A stretch of DNA of 64,000 nucleotides from Deltaproteobacteria bacterium. GTDB lineage: Bacteria; Desulfobacterota; Syntrophobacteria; BM002. A program made the position numbers and the translations under genes. Numbering within the stretch: position 1 is the stretch's first letter; each line of letters opens with the position of its first letter. The stretch covers positions 9,603 through 73,602 of the forward strand of contig JAJDNB010000040.1 of NCBI GenBank assembly GCA_022340905.1. Direction: 5' to 3'. The notes below the pieces were generated by a model. That model ran no database searches. It saw only the letters and a program-made list of their open reading frames with translations, and had not been told where the DNA came from. Shown here piece by piece: positions 1,138 through 57,824 of the stretch.

Positions 1138-1226
1138 GCATTACCAGAAAGCCAGATAAGTAGGCTGGAAATCAAAGGTTCGGCTGAAGGCATATAGCTG
1201 GAAGCTAAAGTAAGGAGGCAGATTAC

Positions 1227-2396
1227 ATGTCTACAACCAACTATCTTTTCACTTCTGAGTCTGTTGCGGAAGGACATCCGGACAAGGTAGCCGACAAGAT
1301 TTCTGATTCGATTCTGGATGCCATCATGGCCGAGGACAAGCAGTGTCGTGTGGCTTGCGAAACCATGGTGACCACAGGGATGGCCATAATTGCCGGCGAA
1401 ATTACTACAAGCTGTTGGGTGGATATGCCGCAGATCGTTAGAGACACGATTAAGGAGATTGGTTACAACAATTCCGGCATGGGATTCGATTGGGAAACCT
1501 GTGCGGTCATGACCTCCATTGACAAACAATCGCCGGATATCTCCCAGGGAGTAACTGCAGGTGAGGGTCTTTTCGAAGACCAAGGCGCCGGAGACCAGGG
1601 GCTTATGTTCGGTTATGCCTGCAGTGAGACCCCCGTTTTAATGCCCATGCCAATCTACTATGCCCACCGGATAACCCGGAGGCTGGCGGAAGCTCGCAAA
1701 AGCGGGGTTTTGGACTTCCTTCGCCCTGACGGTAAGTCACAGGTGACGGTGGAATACGATAACGGTGTGCCCAAGAGAGTTCACACCGTAGTTGTAGCGG
1801 CTCAACATGTTCCCCAGGTGAAGTACGACACCATCCGGGAGGGGATCCTTGAAGAGGTGATCCGCAAGGCCATACCAGAGAATATGCTTGATGATCAAAC
1901 AAAGTACTTTATCAATGCCACAGGCCGGTTTGTAATCGGCGGCCCCATGGGAGATTGTGGCCTCACCGGCCGTAAGATAATCGTTGATACCTACGGCGGC
2001 CAGGGGAGCCACGGAGGCGGCTGTTTTTCCGGCAAGGATCCATCCAAGGTGGACCGGAGCGGCTCATACATGGCGCGATACGTAGCCAAGAATATTGTTG
2101 CCGCCGGATTGACAGAAAAATGCGAAGTCCAGGTCGCCTACTGCATTGGTGTTGCTGAGCCAGTGAGTTTGATGATTGACACTTTTGGTACTAGCAAGAT
2201 CTCTCCAGATCGAATTGCGGAAATAGTAAGGGAAACCTTCACTTTCAAGCCGGCCGAAATTATCAAACATCTAAAGTTGCTGAGGCCCATCTTTAAGAAG
2301 ACTGCCTGTTATGGACACTTTGGTCGCAATGATCCTGATTTTACCTGGGAGCACACTGACAAGGTGGATGAACTCAGGGAGAAGGCGGGGATCTAG
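1227..2396 (+). CDS. metK: S-adenosylmethionine synthetase
   Basis: [35 protein letters not shown]; AGGAGG RBS upstream. Confidence 0.99.
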
Positions 2397-2503
2397 TTCA
2401 GCTAGCAGCTTGCAACTGGCATCGGGCAGCGATTCATATTTGAGAACACTTTCGCTCTTATTATATATCCAATGCTACCCATAGGAAGGAGGACGTGGTT
2501 TTT

Positions 2504-3760
2504 ATGGAATATGATGTAAAAGATCTGGCACTGGCGGAAAAGGGTAGAAACCGAGTGGAATGGGCAAGCCAAGGTATGCCCGTGCTCAAAGCCATTCAAA
2601 ACCGTTTCTCTGATGAAAAACCCCTTGCGGGTGTGCGCATCGCCGCATGCCTGCACGTTACCACTGAGACGGCTGTATTAATGCAGACCCTTAAGGCTGG
2701 CGGGGCAAAGGTGCACCTGTGCGCATCCAACCCACTGAGCACTCAGGATGATGTGGCAGCTTTTTTGGTTGCTGATGAAGATATTTCAGTGTTCTCCATC
2801 AAGGGTGAGGACAGGGATACCTACTATAGTCACATCCACCAGGCCCTTGACTTAAGACCTCACATTACTATGGATGATGGGGCGGATCTGGTGAGTACAA
2901 TCCACGCAGAAAGGCGAGAACTTTTAGAGGACATTCTCGCGGGAACAGAGGAAACTACCACCGGAGTCATTCGGCTTAAAAGCATGGCGACTGCAGGGGT
3001 TTTGGCCTATCCGATTGTTGCAGTAAACGACGCCAACACCAAACACCTTTTCGACAACCGTTACGGTACGGGTCAGAGTACAGTTGATGGGATCATCAGG
3101 GCCACTAATCGCTTGCTTGCTGGCTCCACGTTCGTGGTGGCAGGTTACGGGTGGTGTGGCCGTGGGGTGGCCATGAGAGCTAACGGTATGGGGGCTAAGG
3201 TGATCGTCACCGAGATTGATCCCTTGCGTGCTCTGGAGGCGGTAATGGATGGTTATCAGGTGATGTCCATGCTTAAGGCCGCCGAATTGGGAGACATTTT
3301 CTGTACCGTGACCGGCGATATTAAAGTTCTTCGCAAGGAGCATTTTGTTGCAATGAGAGATGGGGCCATAGTCTGTAATTCAGGCCATTTCAATGTTGAA
3401 ATAGACCTAGAATCCTTGGCTGAGATGAGTGAAGCGAAGCGACAGATCAGAGAGGATGTTGAAGAATATCGTTTATCCAGCGGCAAACGTATCAATGTAC
3501 TTGGAGAAGGGCGTTTGGTGAATCTAGCCGCGGCCGAAGGACATCCTTCCAGTGTCATGGACATGAGTTTTGCCAACCAAGCTCTGGCGGCAGAGTACGT
3601 GAAGAAAAATGGGTCCACCTTGCAGAAGAAAGTCTATGGAGTGCCTGAGGATATCGATTCGGAGATTGGCAGGCTCAAGCTCGCAGCCATGGGAGTTGAG
3701 ATTGACATCCTTCTTCCAGAGCAGGAAAAGTATTTGGCCTCGTGGGATATGGGAACCTAG
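2504..3760 (+). CDS. ahcY: Adenosylhomocysteinase (SAH hydrolase), short type
   Basis: [56 protein letters not shown]; ATG 2504 chosen from spacing to AGGAGG at 2487-2492. Confidence 0.98.
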
Positions 3761-3788
3761 GGATTGCGGATTGCGGATTGCGGATTTG
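3761..3788. repeat. Heptamer tandem repeat (GGATTGC)x3 + GGATTTG directly after the ahcY stop
   Basis: Read directly: ggattgc ggattgc ggattgc ggatttg. Confidence 0.95.
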
Positions 3789-55535: not shown

Positions 55536-55585
55536 AAAGGGTGCTACAAAGACCTGGTTTCAGAGGTTTCAAGCACCCTTTTTTA
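55536..55585 (+). terminator. Intrinsic terminator after dnaK
   Basis: AAAGGGTGCT...AGCACCCTTT stem with an inner AGACCT/AGGTTT stem, then TTTT. Confidence 0.7.
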
Positions 55586-55635
55586 TTTTATGGGTAGAGG
55601 GCATGGGGTTTGATATTCAGCAACGGGAAGAACCG

Positions 55636-57744
55636 ATGCAACACAGGGTAAAGATTCTCCGGGGGATAGCTCTCTGGTTGTTGCCATTCATTATCATAGG
55701 CTGCGCCCTGTTACCGCCGAAAAAAGAGGTGGCAGTTGAGGCTCCAGCTGAGGTAGGAGAAAAAGAGGCTATCCTGCAACTGGCCATGGCCGAAGAGGCC
55801 TTCAAGGCGGGCAATCTGGAGGAGGCATCCCAGCGGTACCGAGAGCTGGCTATGGCCTTTCCAGGCAGTCCTCAGGCAGCGCAGGCTTTGCTTCGACAAG
55901 GAGAAATCGACTATAGCCTGGAGAAATATGAAAAGGCTGCCTCTTGGTTTCAACAGGTAATCAAAGAGTTCCCTCTTAGATCGGAGGGAAATGAAGCCCG
56001 TCTCCGGCTGCTTCGTTGCTATCTGAAGCTGGAGCGTTTCAATGACGCAGTGGAAACAGGTAGACCTTTGATAAAATATTTGCCTGAGAAATCTCAAAAA
56101 GCTCTGGCTGCCGAGATTGTAGGTGATGCTGAGGCGGCGCGACTCAACTATGCCAAGGCACTAAAGTGGTATGTCACATCAGACGAACTTGCCGAGGGTG
56201 ACAAACGTATATTTTTGGCGGCGAAGGTGGACATCGTCCTTAAACACCTCGGCAGAGACGAGGTAGTAGCGCTGCTGGCGGAGTATCCAGAGACCTTTCC
56301 CAATCTTCAACTGCAGACCCGGCTGGTGGAAATAGACATGGAGAGCGGGCAATTTGGTGTGGCGCAGAAAAAATTACAGTCTCTCATCGAAAGGTGGCCT
56401 GAGCATCCACTTGTCGACACCTGGAAAGGGATGAGCGCAAAAATTGACGAGTGGATGCAAGTGGATATGACCGCTGTCGGCTGTGTACTACCTCTGAGTG
56501 GTCGCTATCAAGCCTATGGTGACAGGATCTTGCGGGGACTAGTAATGGCGGCCCAGGACTTTAAGAATGTTGGTGGCGATATTCAGTTGATTATCAAAGA
56601 TAGTGGCGGCGACCCAGGTGTTGCCGTTGCTGCAGTGCGTGATCTTGTCATGGATAACAAGGTTGCTGCCATCATCGGGCCCCTTAGCCGGGTTGCTGCG
56701 GAGGCCGCTGCTGAGGAAGCAGAGAAACTCTGGGTTCCCATAATAACTCTCACTCAAAAAGAGGGTGTAAGCCACATTGGCAGTTACGTATTCCGCTACT
56801 TTCTTAGCAATGAGGAACAAACAAGGGCACTGGTGGAATATGCTGTACTTGGCCTTGACTACAAACGTTTCGCCATTCTTTATCCTGATGACAGTTACGG
56901 CACCCGGCTGATGAATCTCTTTTGGGATGAACTGGATCGCTTGGGTGCAGAGGTCAGAGGAGTAGAAACCTATGATCCCTCTCAAACAGATTTTGCCGAG
57001 CAGATTAAAAAGCTGGTGGGTCTTTACTATCCTCGAGTGGAAGATGAAACCAGCGAATGGACAGAGGGAGTAAAAACTGACAAAGGCTCCTCAGCTGGCT
57101 TGAAGGGACAAGCGCCTGGAGGTCCGGGGGAGGAGGAGCTGACACCCATTGTTGATTTTGATGCCATCTTTATTCCGGACGGCTACAGTCAAGTGGGTCT
57201 CATTGCACCCCAGTTGGCATATCACGACGTCACAGGTGTGAAACTATTGGGGACGAACCTGTGGAACTCTCAGAAGTTAGTCGAGATGGCTGGACCCTAT
57301 CTTCAGGACGCTGTTTTCGTGGATGGTTTCTTCTCAGGAAGCGGCTTACCATTGACCGGCCGGTTTGTCGAAAGCTATGAGAAAACTTTTGGGGGGAAGC
57401 CTGGGTATCCTGAGGCACAGGCCTATGATACTGTGCGTCTGCTTATGGAGGCCCTCCGTCAGCCTGGGGTGACATCTCGACCTATGCTCCGCGACGCTCT
57501 CTTGGGAATACGGGCGTTGCCGGGAGTGGCGGGTATTGCCTCGGTCAGTCCAGATGGAGAGGTGAGTAAGCCCCCTTTTCTCATTACTATTTATCGGAGG
57601 CGGATGGAGGAGATCCAAGTGGATTTTGAGATGTTAGAGCAGCAGCGGCGGAGATACCTTGAATACTCCACAGGTAAAGATTTGCAGTCTACCCAAAGAC
57701 TTTCGCCTGCCTACAGTTCGCCCATGTCGTCGACTGGTCGGTAG
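55636..57744 (+). CDS. Penicillin-binding protein activator LpoA-like lipoprotein (TPR + periplasmic-binding fold)
   Basis: Lipobox IIGC, N-terminal TPRs, VGCVLPLSGRY, IIGPL, FDAIFIPD, QLAYHDV, AQAYD. Confidence 0.8.
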   Translation: MQHRVKILRGIALWLLPFIIIGCALLPPKKEVAVEAPAEVGEKEAILQLAMAEEAFKAGNLEEASQRYRELAMAFPGSPQAAQALLRQGEIDYSLEKYEKAASWFQQVIKEFPLRSEGNEARLRLLRCYLKLERFNDAVETGRPLIKYLPEKSQKALAAEIVGDAEAARLNYAKALKWYVTSDELAEGDKRIFLAAKVDIVLKHLGRDEVVALLAEYPETFPNLQLQTRLVEIDMESGQFGVAQKKLQSLIERWPEHPLVDTWKGMSAKIDEWMQVDMTAVGCVLPLSGRYQAYGDRILRGLVMAAQDFKNVGGDIQLIIKDSGGDPGVAVAAVRDLVMDNKVAAIIGPLSRVAAEAAAEEAEKLWVPIITLTQKEGVSHIGSYVFRYFLSNEEQTRALVEYAVLGLDYKRFAILYPDDSYGTRLMNLFWDELDRLGAEVRGVETYDPSQTDFAEQIKKLVGLYYPRVEDETSEWTEGVKTDKGSSAGLKGQAPGGPGEEELTPIVDFDAIFIPDGYSQVGLIAPQLAYHDVTGVKLLGTNLWNSQKLVEMAGPYLQDAVFVDGFFSGSGLPLTGRFVESYEKTFGGKPGYPEAQAYDTVRLLMEALRQPGVTSRPMLRDALLGIRALPGVAGIASVSPDGEVSKPPFLITIYRRRMEEIQVDFEMLEQQRRRYLEYSTGKDLQSTQRLSPAYSSPMSSTGR

Positions 57745-57746
57745 CA

Positions 57747-57824
57747 GGTGATAGGCAAGAGGTGATGGGTAATGGGTTGTTGCTAACCTATGACCCATAA
57801 CCCATCAGCCCCTCATCTATTCCC
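57747..57824. repeat. Palindromic heptamer element (ATGGGT(A/T) family)
   Basis: gtgatgggtaatgggtt mirrored by aacctatgacccataacccatca. Confidence 0.75.

Follow-up and report, generated by a model that had tools for sequence, protein, structure and literature searches.

Arrays of tandem heptamers between genes were first noted in cyanobacteria, in 1990; Xanthomonas, Beggiatoaceae and Geobacter were added later. The STRR (short tandemly repeated repetitive) sequences that Mazel reportedly described in 1990 belong to heterocystous cyanobacteria, with units such as CCCCAGT, and in a 1997 study by Vioque they are said to extend helix P12 of the RNase P RNA. Here, arrays of this kind are described from a 64-kb stretch of a Deltaproteobacteria bacterium (assembly GCA_022340905.1, contig JAJDNB010000040.1, positions 9,603–73,602; hereafter the window), which has ~49% GC and a positive GC skew throughout. 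An initial annotation of the sequence had singled them out as the product of a common process and as an under-described system. Its interpretation held for the spreading process, the location at gene 3′ ends and the filled and empty alleles among relatives, but failed for the lack of a consensus and for novelty, inverted pairs of tandem heptamers having already been recorded (PMC2700814, PMC2670836, PMC4692102, PMC4679880). The feature is real and lineage-wide, and is a further case, in a Syntrophobacterales-like clade, of a known but unexplained class of intergenic heptamer arrays. On balance, the arrays are probably copies of lineage-wide interspersed modules that resemble STRR, repetitive extragenic palindromic (REP) sequences and bacterial interspersed mosaic elements (BIMEs), and that were copied as blocks, resized by slippage and either tolerated or used as hairpins at mRNA 3′ ends. 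The clade series makes the dynamics of such arrays visible, including a limited vocabulary, block copying, fixed orientation, stability among strains and cassette swaps at 98–99% identity.

The organisation is closest to that of the Geobacter multicopy sequences and of REP/BIME mosaics. The 'multicopy nucleotide sequences' reported from Geobacter metallireducens in 2009 include paired heptamer arrays (ATTCTGA/CTCCTGA/CTTCTGA, class 3) that lie 80–110 bp apart, one class of these pairs has insertion sequence (IS) elements at a constant distance, and the arrays were proposed by Aklujkar et al. to be sites for a global regulator or nucleoid protein (PMC2700814). In G. bemidjiensis, direct repeats of 6–42 nt are present in 12% of the intergenic regions (PMC2996986). 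The likeness extends to tandem units of 7, 8 or 8–9 nt in three to five copies, pairs on opposite strands 80–110 bp apart, the intergenic location and the presence of several families; the layout of tandem short units with an opposite-strand partner tens to ~100 bp away, in many intergenic copies, recurs here. The class 3 units match the CAGGAGT/CAGAAGT types at related loci L003, L010 and L017 and CTTCTGA in an arm of module E of the window (see below). Geobacter falls within the same phylum-level group but a different order, and the lineage of the window differs in that its genome has 49% GC and some of its unit families are others, while the post-stop placement, preferred order and turnover between close relatives that are shown here were not analysed for Geobacter. 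Because the Geobacter sequences share both the architecture and similar units, the feature belongs to a known, poorly understood kind.

Other described systems share some of these traits. STRR form hairpins between genes such as hupS and hupL, for which transcript stabilisation has been proposed (PMC2670836), and resemble the arrays in having intergenic, hairpin-capable tandem units of 7 nt with several sequences per genome, but they are found in heterocystous cyanobacteria, have other unit sequences and are often longer and more perfect. The HIP1 site is absent from the window, which is therefore not cyanobacterial, as the gene content also indicates, and assignment to STRR in the strict sense was rejected given the absence of HIP1, the different units and relatives that are all Desulfobacterota/Syntrophobacterales metagenome-assembled genomes (MAGs). 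The REP, BIME and REPIN sequences of Escherichia coli and Pseudomonas are likewise imperfect palindromes outside genes. They lie between co-directional or convergent neighbours and not in promoter gaps, are transcribed in 3′ untranslated regions, are dispersed as mosaics of a few motifs and are variably present among relatives. REP units, however, have no internal 7-nt periodicity, conform to one consensus palindrome or a few, in which a 5′ tetranucleotide is conserved, and are tied to REP-associated tyrosine transposases (RAYTs), and a single consensus of that type does not describe the present ~dozen families, each of which is 7-periodic. Arrays in Xanthomonas (GGGAATC), Nostoc (GGGGAYT; PMC4692102) and Beggiatoaceae (TAACTGA; PMC4679880) are intergenic, have 2–26 units and some inverted pairs and, at a given gap, differ in length and sequence from one close species to another. 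They are dominated by one unit and are G-quadruplex-prone or located just upstream of start codons, whereas the arrays here have many units, lack G-quadruplex potential and lie preferentially towards stop codons.

Detection and periodicity of the arrays

Within the 40 gaps between genes of the window (8.2 kb), there were 14 arrays with a period of 7 nt, compared to 0.67 ± 0.89 in 200 dinucleotide shuffles of those gaps (10 vs 0.2 with a stricter cut), and seven with a period of 9 nt, compared to 0.64, whereas periods 5, 6, 8, 10, 11 and 12 occurred in these gaps at the level of the shuffles. The initial annotation had allowed that frequencies might be no higher than in shuffled DNA, which the excess at period 7 contradicts. 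Tandem Repeats Finder (TRF) recovered nearly all of the named sites, with period-7 arrays at 3761–3786, 5173–5195, 7382–7412, 7427–7441, 11815–11839, 13892–13924, 20821–20852, 32676–32698, 32717–32745, 33954–33968, 36605–36630 and 57784–57805, and period-9 arrays at 7464–7489, 46446–46472 and, weakly, 31322–31344. Autocorrelation of the intergenic DNA peaked at lags 7, 14 and 21 (0.311, 0.283 and 0.285; baseline ~0.26), coding DNA had period 3 only, and the lag-7 self-similarity of the relatives followed the same pattern more strongly. Despite its enrichment over the shuffles, period 9 gave no clear autocorrelation peak, and these arrays were kept as minor members because most fall in the ACGATTTCA and GCGAGACG families. 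The head-to-tail 7-nt units, over-represented relative to other periods and confined to non-coding DNA, correspond to the heptanucleotide tandem-repeat class.

Two of the proposed sites were dropped, a GCTGAAG-like sequence at 1160–1210 that contains no array above noise and no structure, and a 9-bp repeat at 31323 that is conserved upstream sequence, also present in L033. The arrays are not CRISPR arrays, as had been stated, the units being contiguous and 7–9 nt long, compared to CRISPR repeats of 24–40 nt with unique spacers of similar length. A scan of the window with the Rfam covariance models (gathering threshold and E ≤ 1) had tRNA-Leu as its single match, and none of the arrays matched an Rfam family.

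Relatives were collected with the helicase-like protein encoded at 5780–7354 as query against species-representative genomes, which yielded 17 syntenic loci that are 64–87% identical in amino acids and belong without exception to uncultured 'Deltaproteobacteria / Syntrophobacterales / Desulfobacterota' MAGs. Another 15, strain-level relatives included, came from metagenomes and from protein look-ups, with loci labelled by L-numbers, and the comparative series comprises ~25 syntenic loci that span 64% to 99.9% identity.

A limited vocabulary of units, copied as blocks

The units had been described as different, without a shared consensus. The arrays instead fall into about a dozen families, each with a consensus of its own, as several REP/BIME families would: GCATAGA, GGATTKC, CAGCNGG, CACTARG, CAGAGGT, CAGGTKT/GGTTTCA, CATTTNN, AATCTNC, GCGCAKA, GCGAGAC, ACGATTTCA and TTTACCR. 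A module consists of 2–9 degenerate tandem copies of a 7-nt unit (8–9 nt in two families), and the families recur in non-orthologous gaps and across the ~25 related metagenomic loci. Among non-orthologous gap classes, 22 units are found in at least two, compared to 4.6 expected from random intergenic heptamers (maximum of 14 in 2000 simulations).

Entire blocks recur as well. Module E, a hairpin followed by GTGGYGG and ACGATTTCA 9-mers, was found by nhmmer and alignment at full length in at least five gap classes with 82–89% identity and with the order of its variant units kept. Copies lie in the helicase gap (L001, L002 and L020), reverse-complemented in the MltA convergent gap (L001, L002 and L025), in the thioesterase–selB gap of L008, in the ahcY gap of L026 (weak) and at 20744–20854 of the window, and every copy is co-oriented with the gene that it follows. 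The G-family hairpin is present in at least four gaps, including 32676–32744 and 5141–5195 of the window and other gaps of L007, L016 and L025. Recurrent multi-unit blocks and shared units support the claim that a common process underlies the arrays, which are not independent accidents.

These data bear on the idea that the arrays are mere by-products of replication slippage that acted locally on random seeds where DNA is unconstrained, without spread or function, an explanation that is now hardly credible. Heptanucleotide repeats are the commonest long simple sequence repeat class in many bacteria, with polymerase slippage as the proposed cause (Mrazek 2007, from the summaries in PMC4679880 and PMC4692102), and differences of whole units in copy number are seen between species, but the alignment of module E and the count of shared units already contradict slippage as the sole process. 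The ordered variant units within blocks, the fixed orientation, conservation above the coding level and the lack of slippage among near-identical strains (below) also stand against it, and the limited vocabulary, block copying, orientation, stability among strains, cassette swaps and one hairpin conserved above its flanking genes together argue against plain slippage.

The vocabulary may reach beyond the clade. A 25-mer of module E had no exact match in viral contigs, while a 16-mer of the G family had 26, which is about the chance number by a rough estimate. Genuine G-family hairpins were nevertheless found at four loci on three IMG/VR contigs labelled viral, with 58–68% GC (L041, 548–616; L049/L051, 3468–3490 in L049 and 1159–1181 and 5098–5120 in L051; and L056, with seven arrays in 4.3 kb). 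L056 also has arrays of CCCGGTC, the reverse complement of GGGACCG, a heptamer with 49 reported sites in G. metallireducens. Because both the hairpins and the CCCGGTC heptamer occur in such contigs, the vocabulary spans wide GC and phylogenetic distances.

The arrays and modules of the window, in order of position, are as follows.

2397–2430, + strand: degenerate CAGCNNG-type heptamer array directly after the metK stop, without a hairpin (fold z ~0); L003, L008 and L010–L013 have it at the orthologous position too
3761–3786, + strand: perfect (100%) array of 3.7 GGATTGC units that begins at the ahcY stop codon; its GGATTKC family occurs in at least three other gap classes
5141–5195, + strand: G-family hairpin with GGTTTCA/CAGGTGY arms (5141–5156 and 5173–5195) in the convergent gap after the MltA-like gene; weak fold; right arm 96% identical to 32723–32745
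7375–7500, + strand: composite module E, with a CAGAGGT-type hairpin (arms 7383–7420 and 7426–7457), GTGGCGG and ACGATTTCA 9-mers at 7464–7489; fold z −4.3
8358–8391, + strand: CTTTKCG array and GC hairpin after the gene at 7557–8336 (fold z −3.9), a remnant of the GCGCAKA (I) family, whose hairpins lie in the orthologous gap of L007 (6331–6507) and L010 (12314–12511)
11813–11839, + strand: GCATAGA array over the last thioesterase codons and the TAG stop, detected by TRF
11879–11911, + strand: degenerate TTACCNN (K-family) heptamer array upstream of selB; the K family ends the orthologous gap before selB in L006, L008, L010 and L017
13891–14094, no strand assigned: inverted D-family (CACTARG) arms (13891–13924 and 14066–14094) that enclose a conserved AT-rich core where selB and the dihydroorotate dehydrogenase gene converge; z −4.5; D-family arms also in L002, L003, L004, L006 and L008
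18342–18424, − strand: weak GATTTCA/GATTACA hairpin (arms 18342–18362 and 18402–18424); sense-strand z −1.9
20657–20680, − strand: GCGCATA-family array overlapping the probable lolA start, detected by TRF
20744–20854, − strand: second, decayed module E downstream of ftsK (left arm 20817–20854, 9-mers 20744–20771; nhmmer E = 9e-6), weakly folded, with its right arm mostly lost and an inverted match to 7388–7418
32676–32744, + strand: G-family hairpin, GGTTTCA GGTGTCA ×2 / TGAAACC TGACACC TGAACAC TGAAACC, in the gap between NTP-transferase and APH-like genes; z −5.4
33867–33967, + strand: weak F-family hairpin (CATTTNN ... NNAAATG) that ends at the der start region; z −1.2; the gap in L033 also has the F family, with different units
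36597–36685, + strand: GTTYCAR hairpin (arms 36597–36630 and 36654–36685), rich in G-U pairs; z −5.2
46444–46538, + strand: inverted R-family arms (GCGAGACG, period 8–9; 46444–46472 and 46508–46538) spanning the mgsA stop and the start of a tetratricopeptide repeat (TPR) gene
51130–51173, + strand: 11-nt array of four TACCGACCGAT units that supplies the final codons, stop included, of the gene for a sigma-54 activator (49685–51175), with the highest TRF score in the window (67); includes the K-family unit TTACCGA
55556–55571, + strand: GGTTTCA(GA) ×2 (G family) in the loop of the canonical terminator (stem and T-run) at 55538–55589, after dnaK
57761–57845, + strand: ATGGGTR hairpin (arms 57761–57779 and 57788–57810; z −4.4) followed by 2.4 copies of the 9-mer CATTTTAGA (57824–57845)

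Position and orientation relative to genes

The window contains densely packed housekeeping genes, mostly on the + strand, including metK, ahcY, an MltA-like transglycosylase, selB, pyrD/pyrK, ftsK, lolA, hemA, ssb, der, a branched-chain amino-acid ATP-binding cassette (ABC) transporter, mgsA, hrcA-grpE-dnaK, gatCA and ftsY. Per kb of the window and its relatives, there were 0.06 arrays in coding sequence, 4.5 in gaps between convergent genes, 2.5 in those between co-directional genes and 0.95 in divergent (promoter) gaps, which are depleted, and arrays were 40–75 times denser in non-coding than in coding DNA. The few exceptions to their near exclusion from coding sequence (11813, 20657, 46444 and 51130) touch gene ends. 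As had been claimed, the arrays are located at gene ends, on the 3′ side: 24 of the 81 arrays in co-directional gaps begin within 10 nt of the upstream stop codon.

Orientation is similarly constrained. By consensus unit, the GGATTKC family is sense-oriented 13:1 and GCATAGA 6:2, the latter being mostly sense in a cruder regular-expression annotation that recounts orthologous gaps; such gaps are counted repeatedly in these ratios, with each family still spanning at least three independent gap classes. GCATAGA arrays follow directly after the stops of at least five different genes in the relatives and usually begin at or overlap the stop codon. After a stop, the usual order is GCATAGA, GGATTKC, CAGCNGG, at least one hairpin module (often around a small GCGGCTTTCAGCCGC stem), ACGATTTCA 9-mers and TTTACCR before the next gene, an order that is a tendency across different genes and genomes. 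This succession could be taken as an ordered, oriented post-stop 'grammar' with dedicated trans-acting writers and readers across the Desulfobacterota, in which a heptamer-block copy-paste enzyme could act, and/or proteins with a 7-nt footprint could read a core of 4–5 nt. Such a scheme appears improbable; if true, the modules would not be REP-like junk but a mobile or post-transcriptional system that had gone unrecognised.

A core of that length is suggested by the variation between units, which clusters in two adjacent positions (0.742 vs 0.648 ± 0.027 in a detection-matched simulation), a statistic that hints at sequence recognition and is confounded by duplicated mutant units. The arrays could accordingly be binding sites for a protein with a 7-nt footprint, either a DNA regulator or nucleoid protein or a cold-shock-type or other single-strand RNA binder, with the hairpins secondary. 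Conserved cores such as CATTT-NN and AAATG-NN, arms conserved beyond the needs of pairing, unit families in common with Geobacter and with the 58–68% GC contigs, and the strong orientation of unpaired arrays would all fit, and proposals of this type exist, including that of MacGregor for a cold-shock-type or other single-strand-binding protein on RNA at the TAACTGA repeats (PMC4679880). Binding sites are unlikely to be the main explanation, as the depletion of divergent promoter gaps and the preference for stops are the opposite of what transcription-factor sites show, a dozen unit families would require many proteins, and part of the clustering can stem from mutated units that were then duplicated.

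Several gene ends are composed of array units. The last seven codons and TAG stop of the thioesterase gene are GCATAGA units (11813–11834), the probable lolA start (ATG at 20677, MRYALCAFV...) and its signal peptide lie inside the GCGCATA-family array at 20657–20680, and the right arm of the F-family hairpin (33938–33967) abuts the der start, where there is no clear Shine-Dalgarno sequence. Units of GCATAGA, CACTARG, CTGAYCT and CCTGACA contain TAG, TAA or TGA, and three copies at a 7-nt period place stops in all three frames (e.g., 11813–11839 and 13891–13924). For annotation, the arrays yield spurious open reading frame (ORF) extensions, altered C-termini (thioesterase, MgsA) and overlaps with start codons (lolA, der), and they probably break assemblies.

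Hairpins and their likely level of action

The initial annotation gave most arrays an inverted partner. Pairing itself is well supported, with 35 of 92 arrays having a partner within 200 nt, compared to 0–4 in reversed or complemented controls, but this is 38% and not most. About half of the sites named in the window are paired, clearly so at 5141/5173, 7383/7426, 13891/14066, 32676/32717, 36597/36654, 57761/57788 and 46444/46508 and more weakly at 18342/18402 and 33867/33938, while the partner of 20817 has decayed and no inverted partner was found for the arrays at 3761, 7464 and 11813.

The hairpins are long and imperfect and lack a U-tract. Four in the window fold more stably than shuffled sequence (z −4.3 to −5.4, at 7370, 32660, 36590 and 57745), as does a fifth at 13885–14098 (z −4.5). 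The sense strand of the 36597 hairpin is predicted at −42.9 kcal/mol, compared to −23.1 for the antisense, and of the 18 co-directional hairpins, 13 favoured the sense strand in stability (mean −4.0 kcal/mol; Wilcoxon p ~0.01). G-U pairs are conserved in module E. The post-stop position, the depletion of promoter gaps, the fixed orientation, these G-U pairs and the sense-strand stability favour an existence at the level of RNA.

Hairpins downstream of genes could be the ordinary transcription terminators of the lineage, free of U-tracts, as their strong stems and maximal density in convergent gaps might suggest. This is very unlikely to account for the arrays, considering that a T-rich tail follows only 4 of the 32 hairpins, that matches in a scan for consensus terminators were at chance level, that half of the arrays have no hairpin and that some lie between genes that overlap in relatives. 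The organism also uses canonical terminators, which are present after tRNA-Leu (8546), after dnaK (55538–55589) and at 39539. Classification as intrinsic (Rho-independent) terminators was rejected on the tails and the scan, and the proviso of the initial annotation that all arms might be ordinary terminators without filled/empty polymorphism does not describe the data, in which the arms are not canonical terminators and the polymorphism is present.

Turnover between relatives

At 99.7–99.9% identity, the four strains of one species (L010, L022, L023 and L027) had no change of array copy number over 13 kb and ~25 arrays, with a single unrelated 15-nt indel and one single-nucleotide polymorphism as the only differences. 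Therefore, the arrays are not hypermutable contingency loci, a candidate that was rejected on this stability and on the location of the arrays at 3′ ends. For the thioesterase gap, identical proteins were looked up to obtain strain variants, which gave no more than two 1-kb contigs, of identical sequence. At 93–97% coding identity, by comparison, the gaps could not be aligned, and whole blocks were present, absent or replaced, some inserted inside another array, such that the predicted filled and empty alleles, along with swapped ones, were found.

The best-resolved swap distinguishes the window from L031. A 172-nt segment (36526–36697) that holds the 36597–36685 hairpin is replaced in L031 by a 141-nt module with a GCGAGAC-type hairpin, between flanks that are 96.15% identical upstream (34966–36525) and 99.06% identical downstream (36698–43732, 7 kb), and the jump in identity across the cassette suggests a recombination breakpoint at the module. 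The replacement shares motifs by eye with 46444–46538 of the window, a resemblance without a cross-match in nhmmer, and L033 and L034 have 55 nt and no array at this gap. The last ~six codons of the upstream binding-protein gene also differ between the window and L031.

The pair at 46444–46538 is an insertion of ~140 nt specific to the window, as mgsA and the TPR gene overlap (ATTTTGA) in L032 and L033. Scrambled duplicates remain at the junction, with TTTTGACTCG present twice (46497 and 46579), and the R-family insertion (46440–46590) changes the C-terminal tail of MgsA and lengthens the TPR gene by ~30 codons at its annotated start. From its junctions, this insertion looks more like the outcome of template switching than of clean transposition. 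The G hairpin at 32676–32744 is 90% identical in L033, with 28 of 28 positions of the right arm identical between flanking genes of ~80% identity, a level of conservation that would reflect either constraint or homogenisation among copies.

Filled and empty alleles, insertions embedded in other arrays, blocks that recur in many gaps with their internal order fixed, the Geobacter IS at a fixed distance from one paired-array class and the same 16–25-mers in high-GC contigs of other origin are all consistent with non-autonomous mobile elements, similar to REPINs or MITEs (miniature inverted-repeat transposable elements), with the heptamers as recognition sites of a transposase encoded elsewhere (a REP-associated Y1 enzyme or an IS with tandem-site ends). 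This is a possible, though rather doubtful, explanation, for many arrays are unpaired, the window encodes no transposase and the mgsA/TPR insertion has scrambled junction duplications in place of a clean target-site duplication. A genuine MITE of the window (31359–31494) presents the contrast of a TA duplication and of terminal inverted repeats that match perfectly over 22 bp. The expected association with Y1 transposase, toxin-antitoxin or small four-helix-bundle genes did not materialise: no Y1/RAYT transposase, toxin-antitoxin or small helical-bundle gene was found in the 64 kb, all scanned ORFs being housekeeping.

The preferred reading, that of block-copied interspersed modules, would combine several processes. 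Modules may spread as DNA blocks, through template switching or gene conversion at the arrays or through a trans-acting enzyme encoded elsewhere, while slipped-strand mispairing may alter the number of units, and modules would persist since the transcribed 3′ side of genes tolerates them. Where active, hairpin modules may serve as stem-loops at mRNA 3′ ends or between cistrons, with candidate roles as a barrier to 3′ exonucleases, in partial termination or in the uncoupling of neighbouring genes.

Some of the data count against this reading. No spreading enzyme was found among the ORFs of the window, all of which were scanned, and no consistent or clean target-site duplication was present at the filled/empty junctions examined. 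GGATTKC, GCATAGA and CAGCNGG form no hairpin and the F-family stems are weak, and structure therefore cannot explain all of the families. The asymmetry between sense and antisense could reflect a G-rich sense strand, given that the arrays have 27.7% G and 20.1% C in a window of positive skew, and related copies are not independent. Arms of 23–28 nt conserved exactly across genomes fit recognition of the sequence by a protein at least as well as RNA structure, a role at the RNA level being something that we infer, and the clade DNA examined amounts to ~0.5 Mb.

Other elements in the window

The core between the D-family arms (13925–14065; ~140 nt, AT-rich and containing CTAGAATTAACTTTAAAT) is conserved in L002, L003, L004, L006 and L008, in contrast to the variable heptamer arms on either side of it. 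It may represent a small RNA, a small ORF or a terminator that works in both directions.

The element at 31359–31494, which is unrelated to the arrays, has the properties of a MITE, being 136 bp long with perfect terminal inverted repeats (CTAGCCCGGATGTCTCATGCATT) and TA on both sides, and L033 has an empty site with a single TA, typical of IS630/Tc1-mariner-type targets. Half copies are located at 8920–8957 and 28183–28220, and related copies in gaps of L008, L016 and L017. The 80-aa ORF over the element (31375–31617) has no Pfam hit and is probably spurious.

A 66-aa tatA/E gene (27736–27933; Pfam TatA_B_E, E = 2.5e-21) that was absent from the ORF list lies inside a 513-nt gap of that list, and the apparent 9-nt arrays at 27766 and 27845 are part of its coding sequence. 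Outside of the heptamer families, 2.8 copies of an 18-nt tandem repeat (GTATTTATAGCTTTTCTA) occupy 15133–15183, in an AT-rich gap between genes for dihydroorotate dehydrogenase subunits.

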